This document shows positions 1,546 to 14,469 of a stretch of DNA of 14,469 nucleotides, one piece after another (the first letter of the stretch is position 1; each line of letters starts with the position of its first letter). The notes beneath the pieces were generated by a model. It saw nothing but the letters and a program-made list of their open reading frames with translations. It had not been told where the DNA came from and did not search any database. Made by a program: the position numbers and the translations under genes. Origin of the DNA: a virus; the UHGV virus genome UHGV-0142781. The stretch is one strand, 5' to 3'.

Positions 1546-2607
1546 ATGACAAAGAAACAGCGTAAAAATAAAAAATTCGGGTCCATGACCGGCAACAAGG
1601 TTGAAACCTTCACGCCAGGGCGCGGAAGCGTGATCACCTTTGGCGAACCAGAACCCATCCTGACGACCGGCACTGATTATCACAATATCTGGTATGACAA
1701 TGAGTATGACCACTGGCGACTCCCGATTGATCGCCTGGCGCTGGCCCAGTTGCCGAACCTTAACGGCCAGCACGGCGGGGTACTGTATGCGCGGCGCAAT
1801 ATGGTGGCCGGTGGCTATATCGGCGGCGGCCTGACGCCTGACCAGGTCGAACAGGCTGTCTTTGATTACCTGCTGTTTGGTGACGTCGCTATCCTGAAAA
1901 TTCGTAACGTATTCGGGGAAGTGATCGACCTGCTGCCGCTGCCGTCGCTGTATCTGCGCTGCCGGAAAGACGGGTCGTTTGCCGTTCTGCAGGAAGGGCC
2001 AGCGCTTATCTATGACCCGGAAGACATCGTTTTCTTTAAAATGTACGACCCTCGCCAGCAGGTGTATGGCCTGCCTGACTATATCGGCGGCATCCATTCG
2101 GTGTTACTCAACAGTGAGGCAACCATCTTCAGGCGCCGTTACTACAATAACGGGGCGCACATGGGCTTTATTCTCTATACCAGCGATCCGAATCTGACGC
2201 TGGAAATGGAAAACGAAATCAAAGAGAAGATCGCCCAGTCCAAAGGGCTGGGTAACTTCCGCAATATGTTTATCAACATCCCGAAGGGCGACCCGGAAGG
2301 GGTTAAAATCCTGCCGGTGGGCGAAGTCAGCGCAAAGGACGAATTTGCCAACATCAAAGGGATCACCGCACAGGATATCTTTACCGCTCACCGTTTCCCC
2401 GCTGGCCTGGCGGGTATCATCCCGACCAATGGCGCGGTAATGGGCAACCCTGAAACCGCCCGCACAACCTATCGCAAGGATGAAGTTATCCCCTTGCAGC
2501 GCAAGCTAATGAACGGCGTCAACAATGACCCGGAGATCCCCGCACACTTGCACCTGGTTTTTGACGTGGATATCCCAGCAATTACCACCGAAAAGGGCGA
2601 AAAATGA
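1546..2607 (+). CDS. Q: Capsid portal protein (P2 gpQ family)
   Basis: 353 aa; motifs FGEPEP, IFRRRYYNNGAHMGFILY, SKGLGNFRNMF and EVSAKDEFANIKGITAQDIFTAHR match my recollection of P2 gpQ. GGGAAAG RBS at 1533-1539. Confidence 0.85.
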   Translation: MTKKQRKNKKFGSMTGNKVETFTPGRGSVITFGEPEPILTTGTDYHNIWYDNEYDHWRLPIDRLALAQLPNLNGQHGGVLYARRNMVAGGYIGGGLTPDQVEQAVFDYLLFGDVAILKIRNVFGEVIDLLPLPSLYLRCRKDGSFAVLQEGPALIYDPEDIVFFKMYDPRQQVYGLPDYIGGIHSVLLNSEATIFRRRYYNNGAHMGFILYTSDPNLTLEMENEIKEKIAQSKGLGNFRNMFINIPKGDPEGVKILPVGEVSAKDEFANIKGITAQDIFTAHRFPAGLAGIIPTNGAVMGNPETARTTYRKDEVIPLQRKLMNGVNNDPEIPAHLHLVFDVDIPAITTEKGEK

Positions 2608-2930
2608 GCGCAGTTAAGTTAAAATCATCCCCATTGTTAGCAATGGTGTGCGGGATGGTGAACATGCGAGTTTTTAAAATTAAATGTCCTGAATGCGGCT
2701 CACCGGCCATCATTCGCAAATCAGACTGGAAAGATAAAAAACTGGCCGATTTATACTGCGCCTGCACGGAAGTTGAATGCGGCCACACCTTTGTTTTTAA
2801 CGCCCAGTTTTCACATACTCTCAGCCCCAGCGGACTGACCGGCAACAAGCTGGTTAAATTTCTGATTGATCGGCTCAAACCAGACGAAAGACAATTCGCT
2901 TTAGATTTGCTAAACAACCATATTAATTAA
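2604..2930 (+). CDS. Ogr/Delta-family zinc-finger transcriptional activator (late-gene activator type)
   Basis: CPEC-x22-C-TEVE-C-GHTF matches the Ogr pattern C-x2-C-x22-C-x4-C-x2-TF (P2 Ogr: CPLC...CQNVNCSATF). ATG at 2604 overlaps the Q stop TGA at 2605-2607 (ATGA). An alternative start at 2664 (MRVFKIKCPEC) gives an Ogr-sized protein. Confidence 0.7.
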   Translation: MSAVKLKSSPLLAMVCGMVNMRVFKIKCPECGSPAIIRKSDWKDKKLADLYCACTEVECGHTFVFNAQFSHTLSPSGLTGNKLVKFLIDRLKPDERQFALDLLNNHIN

Positions 2931-2982: not shown

Positions 2983-4818
2983 ATGAGCAATTCAAAATAC
3001 ATTAATTTAGATGCGAGAATAAAAAAACTAAAAGAAGTTGTTAAAGATTTAGACACAAACACTTTAGCAACCTACTCTTTTTGGGAAATGTACAAATTTG
3101 GTACATTAGGTCAAAAAATTGAACTACAATCACCAGCACGACAAATCTTATATCTTTTTGGGATTGCATGTTCATCTGCTGAACCAACCGAACCAACTGA
3201 TAATGTTGAGGGTAAGATAAAACAAACAGTAGAGATCCTAAATGATATTTTTACAAAATATATGTTGGCGTACTTTCCAACCAAAGATGATTTAAAATCT
3301 GGATTAGAAGATGAATGGCATAAAGTTAGAGAAGTTGCTATGCCAATGTTTTCAAACTACTTTTTTGAAGGGTTAAAAGTTTCCACTGAAAACTTCAAAG
3401 GGATCATAAAAAATTATTTCAATGGTTTTGAAAATGAAATAAAAACACATTTTGGCTTAGATCACCATGAAATGGTAGAAATTTTAAATCTCATTGGTGA
3501 GCTTATACAGAGCAAATATGACAGATTCCGTGAAATAATGGATACATTAAAAGACGAACATGAGAAATTTAAAGAGAATAATTTTGAAAAACATGAAGAT
3601 TTTATAACATATATGGATGACATGAGGGAGCGTACAAAACATTTAGCACAAGAATTTCATGACTTCCTCAATGGGAGTGTATCATTCAAGTTTGATTCAA
3701 TAAGATGTAAACTTGGTGACGATGTCGTTGATAGTTTTATAAAAGCTTTCGTTACAGAGCGTGGAAACTCATCCGAAATCAAATACATTACTGATGAGAA
3801 TCCATTTTCATATAAACCGATAGTAACTGTAAATAATCTGGATTATATGCTCCCTTCTGCTAACGCAGCTTATGAAGCTATCATTCTTAATCTTGAAAAG
3901 TTTTTTAAAGAGTCAAAACACAATGATAAATTTAGAAAAGCCCGAGACAACAGGCTGGAACATGAGACTTTTTGCACCTTTAGAAATTTCTTCCCTGAAT
4001 CAACTACAATACTTGAAAGTGTATTTGAAACAAACAAATCCCATAATGAACATGATCTGATTATTTTCCATGATAAAACGATTCTTATTGTAGAGGCTAA
4101 AGCATCACCACGCCGCGCTCCATTGAGAGAACCAGCCAGAGCATACATTAGAATTAGAGATGATTTCAAACGTAAATCAGGAATACAAAGCGCATCTGAA
4201 CAAGCAAATAACTTAAGAAATTTAATCATTAATAATGAAAAAACATCATTATATGATAAAAAAGGTAATTTACTATATACCATAAATCGTTGTGACTACG
4301 ACAATATATATTGTATATGTGTCACTAAAGATGATTTCGGAATGCTTGCTACAAATTTAACTTTAATGTTAGAAAAAAAAGAAGATGAACCCTACCCTTG
4401 GGTTATTTGTATTCAAGACTTGAAGTTTTATTTTGATTGCCTTAAGGAAATAGATTTGGATCATGACTATTTCTTAAATTATATTCGTGAAAGAATAAAA
4501 ATACACGGCAAAGCAACGGCATGTGATGAGCTTGAATATGCAGGTGCATACTTGAATTATGGTGGTTTCGATTTCATTAATAAAGAAGTAAACTCTAACG
4601 TTTGTCTTGATATCTCTGAATCACGAGTATTCGATGAAATCCATATCGAAAAAGTTAATGGCAGGAAATATGTTCACCAGATTAAAAAACCTACTTACAG
4701 CATTTTAAATAGAGATAAATTAATTTCTTCTTTAAATTTCAATCACTCAAACAAAGATGCAAAAAAAGCAAAATCAAAAAGAAAGGAACAGAAAAAATCC
4801 AGAAAAAGAAACCGTTAA
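2983..4818 (+). CDS. Cargo protein with central PD-(D/E)xK-like nuclease motif and poly-basic C-terminal tail; candidate defence effector
   Basis: 611 aa, strongly AT-rich. Residues 356-373 read EHDLIIFHDKTILIVEAK (D-x12-ExK, nt ~4048-4101). C-terminal 23 residues are almost all K/R/S. No Walker A motif. Confidence 0.85.
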   Translation: MSNSKYINLDARIKKLKEVVKDLDTNTLATYSFWEMYKFGTLGQKIELQSPARQILYLFGIACSSAEPTEPTDNVEGKIKQTVEILNDIFTKYMLAYFPTKDDLKSGLEDEWHKVREVAMPMFSNYFFEGLKVSTENFKGIIKNYFNGFENEIKTHFGLDHHEMVEILNLIGELIQSKYDRFREIMDTLKDEHEKFKENNFEKHEDFITYMDDMRERTKHLAQEFHDFLNGSVSFKFDSIRCKLGDDVVDSFIKAFVTERGNSSEIKYITDENPFSYKPIVTVNNLDYMLPSANAAYEAIILNLEKFFKESKHNDKFRKARDNRLEHETFCTFRNFFPESTTILESVFETNKSHNEHDLIIFHDKTILIVEAKASPRRAPLREPARAYIRIRDDFKRKSGIQSASEQANNLRNLIINNEKTSLYDKKGNLLYTINRCDYDNIYCICVTKDDFGMLATNLTLMLEKKEDEPYPWVICIQDLKFYFDCLKEIDLDHDYFLNYIRERIKIHGKATACDELEYAGAYLNYGGFDFINKEVNSNVCLDISESRVFDEIHIEKVNGRKYVHQIKKPTYSILNRDKLISSLNFNHSNKDAKKAKSKRKEQKKSRKRNR

Positions 4819-4872
4819 CAAAATATCCTTTTGACGAATTCAAACCAACTGAACATATGGAGAAAATAAAAC

Positions 4873-6228
4873 ATGAGAATGACCGCCCCATTAAAATCAT
4901 TTTCTGATGGATTTTGTGAGAATGACGACATTTTTGAAAGAAAAAAACTTCACGACATTATTATGCGAGTTGCTACTAACGCGCCTGATAAAAGTTTAGT
5001 TTTAGCATTAGATGATAAATGGGGTAATGGGAAAACTTCATTTGTAAAAATGATGGAATCAGAAATAAGCAAAAAACATTCCGATGATTTCGAAGTCATC
5101 TATTTTGATGCATTTAAAAGTGATTATCAGTCGGATCCATTTGTAGCGTTAACTTCCAATATTTATTCGTTGGTTAGTAATGAAGAAGGCAAGCTAAAAA
5201 CATTAGGTGAAAAATTATTAAGTGCTGGTAAAAAACTAGGAGCTTCATTCCTTTTAAATGGTGCGAAGTTTGCAATCAGTACTATTTCAGGTGGGATGGT
5301 TTCTGGTACTGTAGTCGAAAAGGCAAGTGATACAATATCAGAATCCATATCATCACCTGTAGAAAAATACATAGAAGAAAAGATAAAAGCAAGTGAGAGT
5401 GAGTTTGCTACTATTGAGCAATTTGGAAATTTGTTAACTGAGATATACAAAGAAAGTGGAAAGAAAATATTTTTTATAATTGATGAATTAGACCGTGCAC
5501 GACCTGATTTTTCATTGGATTTATTAGAAAAGATAAAACATATATTCTCAGTAGAGGGTATTATTTTTCTATTGGTCGTCAATCGCGAACAATTTGAAAA
5601 AAGCATTGAGTCTCGATATGGCAATATAAACTCAAGATTGTATCTCAATAAATTTGTTCATTACTGGTTTTCGCTTCCCAAAACAAGCTGTTTATCTGAT
5701 GGTTGCTTAAATGGATATACTTATTCAACTATAAAACGATATTTACTTTCCATTGATAATGGAAACGACTTATTAAGTAGAAATGGTCCGCTTCTTAATA
5801 CACTATCATTGCTTTTGGAAATAAATGGAGCTTCTTTGAGAGAGGCGGAACGCTGTTACTCGGTATTTTCGGTTATCGAAGATGTCAATAAAGTAAACTA
5901 CTATACAAGTGATGCATATAAAGTAGCTTTGGGACTTGTTGTTTTCCTGAAAGTACATAACTCACAGTTGTTAACTGAAATTGTCTTAAAAAAAATCGTG
6001 TTAAAAGAAGCGATAGCCAAGCTTTTAATATACACAGTTCATCACCACAATATAATCGAAGCTCAATTCATTGAATATATCTTAAAGTACCATTACGCAA
6101 CAAATGAAGAATTAATAGAAGAAAGGAAGCAAAGAACATACTCTGATATAGAAGGTGGATATGGTCGAAGAACTCCCCTATTAGAAGGCATGTTTAAAAC
6201 AGTTGAGGGGTTTGATATTAGTTCTTAA
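4873..6228 (+). CDS. KAP-like P-loop NTPase; candidate defence partner
   Basis: 451 aa, AT-rich. Walker A-like DDKWGNGKTSF (res 47-57, nt 5011-5043) and Walker B FFIIDELDR (res 200-208), about 150 residues apart with a hydrophobic stretch between, as in KAP NTPases. 54-bp gap after the upstream gene, same strand. Confidence 0.85.
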   Translation: MRMTAPLKSFSDGFCENDDIFERKKLHDIIMRVATNAPDKSLVLALDDKWGNGKTSFVKMMESEISKKHSDDFEVIYFDAFKSDYQSDPFVALTSNIYSLVSNEEGKLKTLGEKLLSAGKKLGASFLLNGAKFAISTISGGMVSGTVVEKASDTISESISSPVEKYIEEKIKASESEFATIEQFGNLLTEIYKESGKKIFFIIDELDRARPDFSLDLLEKIKHIFSVEGIIFLLVVNREQFEKSIESRYGNINSRLYLNKFVHYWFSLPKTSCLSDGCLNGYTYSTIKRYLLSIDNGNDLLSRNGPLLNTLSLLLEINGASLREAERCYSVFSVIEDVNKVNYYTSDAYKVALGLVVFLKVHNSQLLTEIVLKKIVLKEAIAKLLIYTVHHHNIIEAQFIEYILKYHYATNEELIEERKQRTYSDIEGGYGRRTPLLEGMFKTVEGFDISS

Positions 6229-8932: not shown

Positions 8933-9146
8933 TGGATGCCCCGCTATCACCCTCCCGCTGGGAATGTTTTTCGATTAGCGGGTCGAGTAACACATTGAAA
9001 GAAATCAACAGCGTATTTGCGGCTTCACTTCCGGCGAGAACACCCGCGAACGTTGCGTGTGCAAGGGCCAGTGTTTTGGCTTCGTTAAGCGCAGCCAGTG
9101 CGCCGCGCTGGTATTCCGAAAGACCGTTATTAATTTTGTTAGCCAT
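8925..9146 (-). CDS. Small hypothetical phage early protein
   Basis: 73 aa; its ATG overlaps the dam stop (TGATG at ~9144-9148), suggesting translational coupling; position matches the small ORFs before A in P2. Confidence 0.6.
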   Translation of the reverse strand: MANKINNGLSEYQRGALAALNEAKTLALAHATFAGVLAGSEAANTLLISFNVLLDPLIEKHSQREGDSGASNV

Positions 9147-10111
9147 CAGAAGACCACCTCGTCAGCCGTCCCACCCCACACGGAATAACCAGCACAAGGG
9201 CCACAGTCAGGACAGCACCCACCACCTGCACGACGACAAGTTGCACAGACTTTGAGGACGCCGATCACTTCACTGGCGGCCCCTCTGGTAATGGCGTTCG
9301 CGCTGACAGAACGGTTAACGCTGATTTCCTGGAAGTTGAAAGCGCGATAAATCTCGCGGGTAGATGGGGTGTCGCTATTGGACAGGATCACCGGCGAACC
9401 AGTAAGGCGGTTAATATCCAGCAGGGCGGCAGCTAACTGGCGATGCTCTTTAATCCCAAACGGGGCGGTGTGGTATTGGGTGAAATTAGCGGTTTCGCTT
9501 GTTGGCAGGTATGGCGGATCGCAGTAGATAACCGCGTCACTACCAATCATAATTTTTAACGTGCTCTGGAAATCGCAGCACACGAAAATGGCTTTCGTGT
9601 CGTTAGCTTTTTCAGTGAATAAACGGATCTGTTCTTCCGGGAAGTAAGGCGGGGTTTTGTGTCGCCCAAAGGGAACGTTATATCCACCCTGTTGGTTGTA
9701 GCGTACTACGCCGTTATATCCGTGACGGTTCAGGTAAAGAAATTGTGCTGCACGAAGAATCTTGCCCGTGTCCGGTCCGTCCTCAAACACATTGCGCGAT
9801 GACAGAAGGTCATAGGCGCGGGCGTTGAAATCATCGCGGATCCACTTATAGCCGTCTTTATCGCCGTACACTTTAAACAGCGGGCGAGCAGCGTCGATCA
9901 CCGCATCAGGCCAGCGGGTTATCTGGCGATACAGGTTAATTAAATCTGGGTTGATATCACCCAGGATATAACGGCGATATTCAGTATTGAGGAAAACAGA
10001 AGCACCGCCGACAAACGGTTCCACCAGGCAATCGGCTTTCGGCAGAATCGTTAGCAAATCAGGCATAACCCGGCCTTTGCCACCGGGCCATTTAACGAGA
10101 GATCGAATCAT
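9146..10111 (-). CDS. dam: DNA adenine methyltransferase (Dam family) with Cys-rich C-terminal extension
   Basis: N-terminal KWPGGK, EPFVGG and catalytic DPPY (res 198-201) motifs; GGAGAAAG RBS. C-terminal about 35 residues carry six Cys (CATC...CC..C..C). Confidence 0.9.
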   Translation of the reverse strand: MIRSLVKWPGGKGRVMPDLLTILPKADCLVEPFVGGASVFLNTEYRRYILGDINPDLINLYRQITRWPDAVIDAARPLFKVYGDKDGYKWIRDDFNARAYDLLSSRNVFEDGPDTGKILRAAQFLYLNRHGYNGVVRYNQQGGYNVPFGRHKTPPYFPEEQIRLFTEKANDTKAIFVCCDFQSTLKIMIGSDAVIYCDPPYLPTSETANFTQYHTAPFGIKEHRQLAAALLDINRLTGSPVILSNSDTPSTREIYRAFNFQEISVNRSVSANAITRGAASEVIGVLKVCATCRRAGGGCCPDCGPCAGYSVWGGTADEVVF

Positions 10112-10946: not shown

Positions 10947-11426
10947 ATGAAATTCAATGTGTTTTTTAAAAAAGACCACGGATCACACTGGGTGCTTTCC
11001 GATGATTCCCCCCTCTTTGAAAGTCCACTATTTGAAACAAGACCTAAAGCCATTGATGACCTTGAGAACTTTGTAGGCCTTATGGAATCGCCAATCTTTA
11101 TTAAGGCTGGTGACGATATTAATTCTGGCGATACAGAAAACTGTCCATCTGTAGTAATTTCTTTAAAACAGCATGAATCGCTATGGGGCTGGGAATTATT
11201 TATCTCAAAAAATGGACAACTTTCTAAAGTTACCGAAAGTTCAGGTAATGGCTTTGACTCATTAGAATTAGCAAAGCAAAGTGCCCAGTTTTTCCTTAAT
11301 GCCATTATCGACGCTCCTATTCTGGATCAAGCCGATGTCGCTATCCCCGGCATGCACTTCTCAAAATCTTTCGAGGAAACGCACCACATTGGTGACACTC
11401 ACCCATCTAGTAAATGGTTCAAATAA
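10947..11426 (+). CDS. AT-rich hypothetical protein (moron), antisense to the early operon
   Basis: ATG at 10947 with AGGAG RBS at 10936-10940 (ORF track extends to 10899). 159 aa, visibly AT-richer than neighbours; no recognisable motifs. Confidence 0.7.
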   Translation: MKFNVFFKKDHGSHWVLSDDSPLFESPLFETRPKAIDDLENFVGLMESPIFIKAGDDINSGDTENCPSVVISLKQHESLWGWELFISKNGQLSKVTESSGNGFDSLELAKQSAQFFLNAIIDAPILDQADVAIPGMHFSKSFEETHHIGDTHPSSKWFK

Positions 11427-11800: not shown

Positions 11801-12076
11801 TTATGATGGATTGCCCAGACCCAACCACATTAACCACCCTTCCCTAATTTCCTTCGGGCGGCTCTCATACGCCATTTTCATTCCGTTGTTCCATGCTGGG
11901 AGGTAGACCCAGTACTCACCTGCCCGCCCGGAAGTTGATTGCGGATCGGTCATCTCAACTACGGGTAGCTTTCCTTTTTCAATCATCCCCTTCACCGCTG
12001 CCGGTGTTTTACCAATGAGTTTTGCGAACTCCTGATATGGGACGGCATCTGTGCTTAACGCGATCTGTTTAACCAT
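11801..12076 (-). CDS. cox: Cox (excisionase / lytic-switch regulator)
   Basis: 91 aa; translation tracks my recollection of P2 Cox over most of its length (AIPYQEFAKLIGK, DPQSTSGRAGEYWVYLPAWNNG, ESRPKEIREGWLMWLGLG). GAGGG RBS. Confidence 0.9.
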   Translation of the reverse strand: MVKQIALSTDAVPYQEFAKLIGKTPAAVKGMIEKGKLPVVEMTDPQSTSGRAGEYWVYLPAWNNGMKMAYESRPKEIREGWLMWLGLGNPS

Positions 12077-12192
12077 TTAAGGCCCTCACAAGTTTAAGAA
12101 TCGTCACCAATGGCTTATAGTTGCCTTTGATGTTCATTTCTAAACATCAAACAGTCTACATCTAAATCAAATGGTATTGAGATCTAAACACT
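12077..12192. promoter_or_regulatory. Immunity switch region between cox and C (early and repressor promoters with operator repeats)
   Basis: Three direct repeats TCTAAACA (12139-12146), TCTAAATC (12161-12168), TCTAAACA (12183-12190), exactly 22 bp apart. A TATAAG -10-like element on the minus strand (~12113-12118) faces cox. Confidence 0.6.
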
Positions 12193-12492
12193 ATGTCAAA
12201 CGCCTTAAACGAGAAAATTGTACTCATCAGAAAGTCTGAGTATCTCAGCAGACAGCAACTAGCTGATTTAACAGGCATTCCCTATGGCACTTTAAGTTAT
12301 TACGAAAGTGGTCGTTCTACACCGCCCACGGACGTAATGATGAGGATTTTGCAAATGCCCCAATTCAGCAAATACACGTTGTGGTTTATGACCGATCAGG
12401 TTGCTCCCGAAGCCGGTCAGATAGCACCGGCCCTCGCACACTTTGGGCAAGATGTAACAACATCGCAGCACTCAGACCAAAAGATTGGTTAA
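12193..12492 (+). CDS. C: Immunity repressor C
   Basis: 99 aa; near-collinear with my recollection of P2 C (EKIVLIRKSEYLSRQQLADLTGIPYGTLSYYESGRSTPPTDVMM...), same length. Confidence 0.9.
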   Translation: MSNALNEKIVLIRKSEYLSRQQLADLTGIPYGTLSYYESGRSTPPTDVMMRILQMPQFSKYTLWFMTDQVAPEAGQIAPALAHFGQDVTTSQHSDQKIG

Positions 12493-12637
12493 CCATTCAC
12501 CAGGCGCATCTTTATTACAAAATTTGTTTACTTGTTGCCAAATACAACAAACACAACAAGTTTGTGAAATCTAAGCGCAAGGGAAAATTAACAGCAGCAA
12601 AGAAAACTCAACCTAGCACCATTCATTTGGGGGTCTT

Positions 12638-13645
12638 ATGACAATTAAGAAACTCGATGATGGTCGTTATGAAGTGGATATCAGACCTGCAGGGCGCAAC
12701 GGAAAGCGCATCCGCAGGAAATTTGACAAGAAAAGTGAGGCTGTAGCTTTTGAGAAACACACTCAATACAACCATCACGATAAAGAATGGCTGGCTAAAC
12801 CGACAGATAAGCGGCATCTGTCTGAATTAACAAAAGTCTGGTGGGATCTGAAAGGCAAGCATGAAGAACACGGAAAATCCAATTTGGGTAAGATTGAAAT
12901 CTTTACCCGGATCACTGATGACCCTTGCGCGTTCCAGATAACCAAAGCGCTTATTAGCCAGTACAGCATGACTCGCAGAGGGCAAGGCATAAAACCGGCC
13001 AGTATTAACCGCGACCTTACCTGCTTGAGTGGTATGTTTACTGCGCTAATTGATGCGGAGTTGTTTTTTGGCGAACACCCTTTCAGAGGGATGAAAAAGC
13101 TCAAGGAGCAGAAACCAGAAACAGGCTATCTGACGCAGGAAGAAATAACATTGTTGCTTGCCAATCTTGACGGGGACAACAAGAAAATCGCGATTCTCTG
13201 TTTAAGTACCGGCGCTCGATGGGGTGAGGCCGCGAAACTGAAAGCTGAGAACGTAATACAGAATCGGGTGACGTTCGTTAAAACAAAGACGAACAAACCA
13301 CGTACTGTCCCTATCTCTGAGGAAGTAGCTGTAATGATTGCGGGTAAAGGGTATCTGTTCCCAGATGCCTCATACCCGAAGTTCAGGCGAACAATGAAAG
13401 ATGTAAAACCAGATCTACCGGACGGGCAAGCAACTCACGCATTGCGTCACAGTTTTGCTACCCACTTTATGATTAACGGCGGGAGTATCATCACCTTGCA
13501 GAGAATACTGGGACATTCACGGATAGAGCAGACAATGGTCTATGCGCACTTTGCCCCGGAGTATCTTCAGGATGCTGTTTCACTCAATCCGCTACGTGGT
13601 GGTGTTGACTCCCAGAGTGTCCACACTGTGTCCACAGTAGGGTAG
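12638..13645 (+). CDS. int: Tyrosine integrase (P2 Int family)
   Basis: 335 aa; N-terminus MTIKKLDDGRYEVDIRPAGRNGKRIRRKFDKKSEAVAFEK and C-terminal HALRHSFATHFM...LGHSRIEQTMVYAHFAPEY match P2 Int as I recall it. GGGGG RBS. Confidence 0.95.
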   Translation: MTIKKLDDGRYEVDIRPAGRNGKRIRRKFDKKSEAVAFEKHTQYNHHDKEWLAKPTDKRHLSELTKVWWDLKGKHEEHGKSNLGKIEIFTRITDDPCAFQITKALISQYSMTRRGQGIKPASINRDLTCLSGMFTALIDAELFFGEHPFRGMKKLKEQKPETGYLTQEEITLLLANLDGDNKKIAILCLSTGARWGEAAKLKAENVIQNRVTFVKTKTNKPRTVPISEEVAVMIAGKGYLFPDASYPKFRRTMKDVKPDLPDGQATHALRHSFATHFMINGGSIITLQRILGHSRIEQTMVYAHFAPEYLQDAVSLNPLRGGVDSQSVHTVSTVG

Positions 13646-13726
13646 TTTATTATGGCTTTCAGTGGTCTTGCGTGCCGCGCAAACCCGCATTGCACCGCTG
13701 AAAGCCCATGTTACCTACCCTGAAAA

Positions 13727-13753
13727 ACGCCCTTACGCAGGCTTATTTTTTGC
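13727..13753. other. Candidate attL core (P2 att-core-like sequence) marking the prophage-host junction
   Basis: CGCCCTTACGCAGGCTTATTTTTTG is close to the reverse complement of the P2 core as I recall it (AAAAAATAAGCCCGTGTAAGGGAGATT); lies about 80 bp after the int stop, just before the clpA terminator. Confidence 0.45.
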
Positions 13754-13804
13754 CTGCCGTTTAAACTCCCTGAATATCCCAATTCAAATCACTTTTATCA
13801 GGCG

Positions 13805-13829
13805 AAAAAAAACCGGGCATTACGCCCGG
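13805..13829 (-). terminator. Rho-independent terminator of clpA
   Basis: Minus strand reads GCCGGGC-GTAAT-GCCCGG followed by eight U (stem 13813-13818 / 13824-13829, U-run 13805-13812), about 20 bp after the clpA stop. Confidence 0.75.
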
Positions 13830-13848
13830 CTGATTAGGTGATTAAAGA

Positions 13849-14469
13849 TTAATGTGCAGCTTCTGGCTTGTGCTTTTGCGCACTCTGGAAACCATAAGTC
13901 AGCTCATTTTTCTCTTTATCCAGCGCAACGGTCACCTGGCCACCATCCACCAGCGAACCGAACAGCAGTTCGTTAGCCAATGGTTTTTTCAGGTTATCCT
14001 GGACAACACGCGTCATTGGACGTGCGCCCATTGCGCGGTCGTAGCCTTTCTCTGCCAGCCAGTCACGTGCTTCCTGGCTCACTTCCAGAGAGACACCTTT
14101 CTGATCCAGCTGAACCTGAAGCTCGACGATAAACTTATCAACAACCTGATGAATCACCTCGGTAGAGAGATGATCAAACCAGATAATGTTGTCGAGGCGG
14201 TTACGGAATTCCGGCGTAAACACTTTTTTGATTTCGCCCATTGCATCAGTACTATTGTCCTGATGAATCAACCCAATCGATTTACGCTCAGTTTCACGCA
14301 CACCGGCGTTGGTGGTCATGACCAGCACCACATTGCGGAAATCCGCTTTACGCCCGTTATTGTCGGTCAGCGTGCCGTTATCCATCACCTGCAACAGCAG
14401 GTTAAAGACATCCGGGTGTGCTTTTTCGATTTCATCCAGCAGCAGTACCGCATGCGGATGCTTAATAAC
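13849..14469 (-). CDS. clpA: ATP-dependent Clp protease ATP-binding subunit ClpA, C-terminal part (gene runs off window end)
   Basis: Translation ...LLQVMDNGTLTDNNGRKADFRNVVLVMTTNAG...ALDKEKNELTYGFQSAQKHKPEAAH matches the ClpA C-terminus nearly residue for residue; stop at 13849-13851. Confidence 0.95.
   Translation of the reverse strand, partial: VIKHPHAVLLLDEIEKAHPDVFNLLLQVMDNGTLTDNNGRKADFRNVVLVMTTNAGVRETERKSIGLIHQDNSTDAMGEIKKVFTPEFRNRLDNIIWFDHLSTEVIHQVVDKFIVELQVQLDQKGVSLEVSQEARDWLAEKGYDRAMGARPMTRVVQDNLKKPLANELLFGSLVDGGQVTVALDKEKNELTYGFQSAQKHKPEAAH

Follow-up and report, generated by a model that had tools for sequence, protein, structure and literature searches.

What did the prophage carried by UHGV virus genome UHGV-0142781 use as its attachment site? 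In the stretch of DNA analyzed here (14,469 nucleotides, hereafter the window), a P2-type integrase gene is followed by a short non-coding gap and then by the end of a bacterial clpA gene. The first-pass annotation placed a prophage-host junction in this gap, directly behind the clpA terminator, and took it for a non-tRNA intergenic site of P2 style that differs from the locus used by P2 itself. We asked which host sequence was interrupted, where the strands were exchanged, and whether the site is a new one.

Layout of the junction between int and clpA

Toward the end of the window, the modules run in the order cox (minus strand), C (plus), int (plus), non-coding gap, and clpA 3′ end (minus). 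The cox gene (11801–12076) encodes a 91-aa excision and switch protein (Pfam Phage_Cox, E = 5.9e-43). It is followed by a gene (12193–12492) for a 99-aa P2-type immunity repressor C, which contains an HTH_3 domain (Pfam), has the position and the length of P2 gpC, and lies inside the stretch of DNA homology to P2. The int gene (12638–13645), which adjoins the att site, encodes a 335-aa P2-family tyrosine integrase (Pfam Int_N and Phage_integrase) that shares 87% identity with P2 Int across 336 aa. The stop codons of int (13643–13645) and clpA (13849–13851) are separated by 203 bp of non-coding DNA. The window includes the 3′ part of clpA (13849–14469; 206 codons plus the stop codon; Pfam AAA_2 and ClpB_D2-small) and its intrinsic terminator (13803–13831, minus strand), identified by a terminator scan and a fold as a stem at 13811–13831 followed by a T-run.

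A BLAST alignment of 12109–13751 with phage P2 showed ~74% DNA identity and ended at 13751. The homology extends over the genes C and int as well as the P′ arm, Cox sites, and core; right of the T-run, the resemblance to P2 is no greater than chance. We placed the window on the annotated P2 attP by an offset of +11532. The P′ arm Int-binding site that is transferred from the P2 annotation by this offset falls at 13611–13637, where Int would be expected to bind, and it contains two direct repeats of TGTCCACA (13618–13625 and 13629–13636). These repeats sit where the P′ arm is annotated in P2 and, as the reverse complement, fit the P2-type arm consensus tgTGGaCa (PMC3448106). Alignment to the annotated P2 attP also gives a putative Cox-binding region at 13635–13708. 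Within it, just 3′ of the int stop codon, lies a long inverted repeat (13654–13706; GGCUUUCAGUGGU...ACCGCUGAAAGCC) that is conserved in P2 too, and the predicted fold of 13646–13755 has a free energy of −32.6 kcal/mol (z = −2.76). The counterpart of the 27-bp P2 attP core follows on the plus strand at 13725–13751, where AAACGCCCTTACGCAGGCTTATTTTTT is identical to the P2 core, AATCTCCCTTACACGGGCTTATTTTTT, at 23 of 27 positions. P2 and the window share this order of modules, from C and int through the P′ arm with its TGTCCACA repeats and the Cox-site region to the core.

The P2-core-like sequence that the first-pass annotation had seen at ~13729–13750 is therefore real, although displaced by one base: it is the 22-mer CCCTTACGCAGGCTTATTTTTT at 13730–13751 on the plus strand, which lies, as stated there, between the int stop codon and the clpA terminator. 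The 22-mer occurs once in the window, and with up to three mismatches it had no match in 200 shuffles. A second core copy is absent from the window, which stops in the terminase/portal region, ~20 kb before the opposite prophage end, so that the int-distal junction of this prophage lies outside it. ARAGORN detected no tRNA and no tmRNA gene in the window, and Rfam detected no family at the gathering score, which bears out the statement that the interval holds no tRNA.

Two cargo genes (2983–6228 of the window) are located between the portal/Ogr-like genes and replication gene A, a position that is occupied by tin/old in P2. One encodes a 611-aa protein with no Pfam or PADLOC match; the product of the other is a KAP-family P-loop NTPase of 451 aa, with a PADLOC match to candidate defence family PDC-S20 (E = 9e-72). 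Among the listed prophages with an Int identical to that of the window, other cargo was found at this locus: proteins of 925–941 aa, a GmrSD_N + HEPN pair, or a 570-aa protein. An Ogr/Delta-like zinc-finger ORF (2604–2930, plus strand; Pfam E = 2.6e-17) lies directly after the portal gene and is conserved there in sister prophages. The early operon contains a gene for a D12-class N6-adenine DNA methyltransferase (9146–10111, minus strand) between gene A and the cox side. Sister prophages differ in whether they have this gene and in its length (296–334 aa), and two sister prophages in E. coli have IS1 or IS3 inserted near it.

The att core and the 3′ end of cyaR

We scanned a genome collection with a query consisting of the core and the first seven host bases, and obtained matches in seven Citrobacter species representatives. 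The site is empty in six of the seven (C. braakii, C. pasteurii, C. meridianamericanus, C. portucalensis, C. werkmanii, and Citrobacter sp. wls619), and in C. youngae it is occupied by a related prophage. All six empty sites have the order yegQ-cyaR-core-spacer-clpA terminator-clpA, and the spacer is the one found between cyaR and clpA in the window (13752–13810). The empty site of C. portucalensis A60 is 97.6% identical to the window over 13730–14469, starting at the first base of the 22-mer. Because homology to P2 ends at 13751 and homology to empty Citrobacter sites starts at 13730, the 22 nt at 13730–13751 are the att core that is common to the phage and the host attB. The proposal of a prophage-host junction is thus upheld, and the empty site that the first-pass annotation suggested looking for behind clpA exists, with its boundary at the core.

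The same comparison identifies the host. The clpA sequence of the window is only ~86% identical at the DNA level to the annotated clpA of 5422 E. coli genomes, and the intergenic DNA has no match there, so E. coli was rejected as the host. Because identity is 97.6% with C. portucalensis as against ~86% with E. coli clpA, we assign the host to the C. freundii complex.

The attB is the 3′ end of a gene for a CRP-dependent small RNA, cyaR (also called RyeE), which lies beside clpA in Citrobacter. When GCTGAAAAACATAACCCATAAATGCTAGCTGTACCAGGAACCACCTCCTTAGCCTGCGTAATCT plus the core, taken from the int-distal junction of a sister prophage, was scored against Rfam family RF00112 (CyaR_RyeE), the match reached 105.5 bits (gathering score, 47) and covered model positions 1–85. 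The RF00112 match ends within the 22-mer in the six empty sites and in three int-distal junctions of sister prophages. The Rfam structure line and an independent fold concur on the structure of the cyaR terminator, which consists of an 11-bp stem (AGCCUGCGUAA / UUACGCAGGCU), the loop UCUCCC, and a U-tail (z = −4.3). The 22-mer therefore begins with the last three bases of the loop and continues through the complete 3′ stem and the T-tail of this terminator. As only these last 22 nt of cyaR are present in the window, it is expected that the window itself gives no Rfam match to CyaR.

The second core copy, which the first-pass annotation had anticipated at the other prophage end, was found in sister prophages. 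We scanned IMG/VR for the exact 22-mer and obtained 49 loci; several prophage contigs contain it twice in the same orientation. The distance between the copies is 31,883 bp in UViG_2876522725_000004 (loci L013/L010) and 32,582 bp in UViG_2916255364_000003 (L040/L044), both of which have the P′ arm of the window, and the int-to-clpA regions of the sister prophages are 96–97% identical to that of the window. The int-proximal copy lies, like that of the window, between the P′ arm with int and the clpA terminator. The int-distal copy is flanked by the P arm (..TGAAATAAATGGATTTATTTC..GTCCACACATTGACCACATCGA..) on one side and by GCTGAAAAACATAACCCATAAATGCTAGCTGTACCAGGAACCACCTCCTTAGCCTGCGTAATCT on the other, and is the end of a full-length cyaR, with yegQ as the upstream gene. 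In sister prophages in Citrobacter, the rebuilt cyaR shows no difference up to the end of the T-run, and in some the identity extends 5 nt further (GCCTG), so that no change in CyaR would be expected. Judging from the sister prophages, the window prophage probably also has a second core copy and a rebuilt cyaR: its int-distal end would consist of yegQ-cyaR ending in CCCTTACGCAGGCTTATTTTTT, followed by the P arm (..TGAAATAAA.GGATTTATTTC..GTCCACA..TTGACCACA..). In L010 (3907–4872), the gene beside the P arm encodes a 321-aa cargo protein, where P2 has ogr, and we therefore refer to the far junction as int-distal and not as ogr-proximal.

Position of strand exchange

Natural variation within the core makes it possible to ask which part of each junction came from the host and which from the phage. 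E. coli cyaR ends in CCCTTAC-ACGG-GCTTATTTTTT, whereas the Citrobacter and Salmonella-type gene ends in CCCTTAC-GCAG-GCTTATTTTTT. The centre of the P2 core is ACGG; that of the window is GCAG, the Citrobacter/Salmonella-type allele of the cyaR terminator. Among the loci listed that have both Int and the P′ arm identical to those of the window, the int-proximal junction has ACGG in six of six E. coli loci and GCAG in the Citrobacter and Salmonella-like loci. We then took a census of 190 core occurrences; the window junction, a few sequences of attP type, and the six empty Citrobacter sites are counted among them. Int-proximal junctions with the standard E. coli flank all have ACGG (64/64), those with the clpA flank all have GCAG (14/14, window included), and no mixed cases were found. 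Int-distal junctions do include mixed cases: GCAG follows an E. coli-type cyaR body in four of them, and ACGG follows a Citrobacter-type body in one. In one prophage, UViG_640753023_000011, the two ends differ, with GCAG beside cyaR and ACGG beside int; its P′ arm is of the P2 type and not of the window type, and the evidence on the crossover of the window-type Int is the perfect association between tetranucleotide and host flank.

This distribution indicates that the tetranucleotide adjoining int is derived from the host and that the tetranucleotide adjoining the cyaR body is derived from the phage, which would place the exchange before the tetranucleotide, on its left side. The bases that precede CCCTTAC are aaaaacg in the window-type phage and gtaatct in cyaR, and because these sequences differ, the exchange would fall within the 7-nt CCCTTAC itself (13730–13736, plus strand). 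We infer that this heptamer is the overlap region and that it contains the exact cleavage points; a literature search found no statement of the cleavage positions of P2. Identity with the host starts at CCCTTAC in the window, whereas in P2 it starts 5 nt further left. The DNA to the right of CCCTTAC is of host origin. If strands are exchanged in CCCTTAC, then 13737–13751 (plus strand) would be the displaced native 3′ end of the host cyaR, comprising the rest of the 3′ stem and the T-tail. The origin of this segment is unreadable from the window alone, because the Citrobacter phage and its host both have GCAG.

The mixed int-distal junctions include chimeric cyaR terminators. In L004, L014, L023, and L026, an E. 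coli-type body (5′ stem AGCCTGTGTAA) is joined to a GCAG-type 3′ stem from the phage, and in L082 a Citrobacter-type body is joined to an ACGG-type stem. When the pairing was worked out by hand, each chimera was found to have a U-A and a U-G pair swapped, and the stem stays paired. We also considered the orphan core beside int as a terminator for the C-int transcript and rejected it, as 13695–13755 folds no better than shuffled sequence (z = +0.76).

In the P2 system, integration and excision are governed by Int, IHF, and Cox. Our model for the window prophage starts from the tail-to-tail arrangement of cyaR and clpA in Citrobacter, which puts cyaR ~60 bp from the clpA terminator, and from an attP that carries a copy of the last 22 nt of cyaR (the 3′ terminator stem, with three bases of the loop before it and the T-tail behind it). 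Int, as a heterobivalent tyrosine recombinase, would bind to the arm repeats and the core, and would exchange strands within CCCTTAC. After integration, the phage-borne terminator sequence would complete the cyaR body at the far prophage end, and the original host tail (13737–13751) would be left orphaned beside int and the clpA terminator. By homology with P2, IHF may bend the P arm, and Cox, bound between the P′ arm and the core, may direct excision. CyaR probably stays functional in the lysogen. The phage exchanges the 3′ end of an RNA gene for its own copy, and in this its integration resembles that of the tRNA type; the logic of that type is here applied to half of a terminator hairpin, which is why the site looks intergenic when it is viewed from the int-proximal junction alone. 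Of the description as a non-tRNA, intergenic, P2-style site, we can thus keep the lack of a tRNA and the P2-style Int, arms, and core, as opposed to the 186 style, and we discard the word intergenic, since the core ends cyaR.

One target gene in different chromosomal settings

A protein identical to the Int of the window is present in 8796 index blocks of a public assembly collection. Ten matches were listed, and these are at best 92–97% identical to the window over the regions compared. Six have the order int-core, yegR, yegS, gat operon, which is the E. coli cyaR locus, and in these E. coli loci homology to the window stops at 13751. Two have sseK/cesT/yegS; we call this context Salmonella-like because sseK2 flanks cyaR in Salmonella. 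The remaining two have clpA-clpS-cspD-macBA, the Citrobacter context, and the sister loci encode a full-length ClpA (758 aa) followed by clpS. In a chromosome of the K-12 type, cyaR terminates with a perfect copy of the 27-bp P2 core; next come a P arm, ogrK, a truncated D (D′), yegR, and yegS, so that an ogrK-D′ remnant occupies the site in K-12.

The use of this gene by P2-type phages is already known. Bobay et al. give ryeE in E. coli as a previously known phage target (PMC3603311), and Table 2 of the E. coli W genome paper lists a “cyaR RNA” site for P2-type elements in strains W, K-12, and B (PMC3032704). Wphi2 of E. coli W and P2*B of E. coli B (PMC3032704) share both integration target and phage family with the window prophage. 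E. coli prophages at the cyaR site, including those with an Int identical to that of the window, differ from it in host genus and flanking synteny. The window prophage and P2 both have the 3′ half of the cyaR terminator as their target; downstream of attB lies clpA for the former and yegR/yegS for P2 in E. coli. The first-pass view that the site is unlike the P2 locus therefore finds no support: both phages use one gene, and the difference is confined to the neighbour downstream of it. As a P2-type site cyaR has been published, and what is specific to Citrobacter is the neighbour, clpA; a literature search found no description of the Citrobacter cyaR-clpA context.

Other phages also insert into genes for stable RNAs. 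At the ryeB/sdsR sRNA sites in Salmonella, attP likewise copies the 3′ end of a stable-RNA gene and the gene is rebuilt on integration. The same logic of rebuilding applies to 186, Fels-2, and SopEPhi, which insert into tRNA or tmRNA genes. In all of these the target RNA is not CyaR, and the arm sites of the 186 type belong to a family unlike that of the window prophage. Compared with these other RNA-gene sites, the segment duplicated by the window prophage is only 22–27 nt, half of a terminator hairpin.

We are highly confident that a P2-like prophage of the Peduovirus type has its integrase-proximal junction at 13611–13751, inserted at the cyaR 3′ end in a C. freundii complex chromosome. The lack of a tRNA and the position of the junction in a non-coding gap behind clpA would also fit an anonymous new secondary att site, intergenic and unrelated to the classical P2 locus, especially as clpA in E. 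coli adjoins serW and infA and has no P2 site there. We consider this very improbable: the core ends a full-scoring cyaR in empty Citrobacter sites, whose sequences refute the idea; the identical Int uses cyaR in E. coli and Salmonella-like genomes; and it is cyaR that the exact P2 core ends in the K-12-type chromosome.

The adjacency to clpA might instead be an artefact of recombination between prophages, of another rearrangement, or of misassembly, in which case 13751/13752 would not be a true att junction. The adjacency of cyaR and clpA is absent from E. coli, and P2-like prophages are frequent and resemble one another, which might favour recombination. However, six prophage-free Citrobacter species have cyaR directly beside the clpA terminator, and the 14 int-proximal junctions that share the clpA-terminator flank (window included) show species-level variation in it. 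For the junction itself an artefact is thus refuted, and we give this explanation hardly any credence. Least probable of all is integration of the tRNA type (186 style) into a degraded or unusual tRNA or tmRNA fragment in 13646–13836. Many 186-type phages of the P2 family do target tRNA genes or ssrA (PMC3448106), but ARAGORN found no such gene, Rfam found nothing at the gathering score in the window and CyaR, not a tRNA, at the empty sites, and the arm repeats match those of P2-type and not of 186-type phages.

The chromosomal setting of cyaR differs between E. coli and C. freundii. The order in E. coli is rlmC, artJ...clpA, serW-infA, and separately yegQ-cyaR, (ogrK), yegR-yegS. In C. freundii, cyaR adjoins clpA-clpS-cspD-macBA-ybjX-ybjD-aqpZ, and the genes ahead of yegS are ybjS-amiD-ybjQ-ybjP-artPIQMJ; a break in synteny coincides exactly with the att site, as E. 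coli and Citrobacter cease to be homologous at the final base of the cyaR T-run (loci compared: window 13752–13851; L052 4290–6690; L189 1–7900; L193). A single large inversion with end points at clpA/serW and cyaR/yegR would put serW-infA beside yegS, and we rejected it in favour of an inverted block because it is artJ, not serW, that adjoins yegS in C. freundii. In the C. freundii complex, the block that spans ~26 kb from artJ to clpA in E. coli thus seems to be placed in inverted orientation between cyaR and yegS, its continuity being an assumption of this comparison. The 3′ end of cyaR would then also be one exact edge of this rearrangement, and we think it unlikely, if conceivable, that a P2-like element or its integrase mediated the transfer of the block. 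If so, a phage att site would have reshaped the order of the core genome in a whole species complex.

A separate observation concerns the right flank of cyaR. In the E. coli and Salmonella-like loci L058–L067 (~11115–11170), a P-arm-like relic (..CCATTGACCACATCGA.., ..ATTGACCACACTAACC..) lies to the right of the cyaR T-run, and it is present even when a complete prophage is integrated. Such relics suggest that they are fossils of earlier P2-type insertions. None was seen in the Citrobacter flank to the right of the core.

Junctions of this kind, with a P2-like prophage inserted into cyaR at its 3′ end, are ordinary and have been documented before; the present one is in Citrobacter. It should be annotated as the int-proximal att junction of such a prophage in cyaR, and not as a new clpA-linked site, and the 15–22 nt behind int would be annotated as a displaced cyaR tail. 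Because one integrase uses cyaR in at least two genera, represented by E. coli and Citrobacter, and in a Salmonella-like context, programs that call prophage boundaries at tRNA genes only would miss ends of this kind. The difference between the E. coli and Citrobacter alleles of cyaR (ACGG versus GCAG) maps the probable crossover to CCCTTAC without experiment, and infection across genera yields chimeric CyaR terminators.
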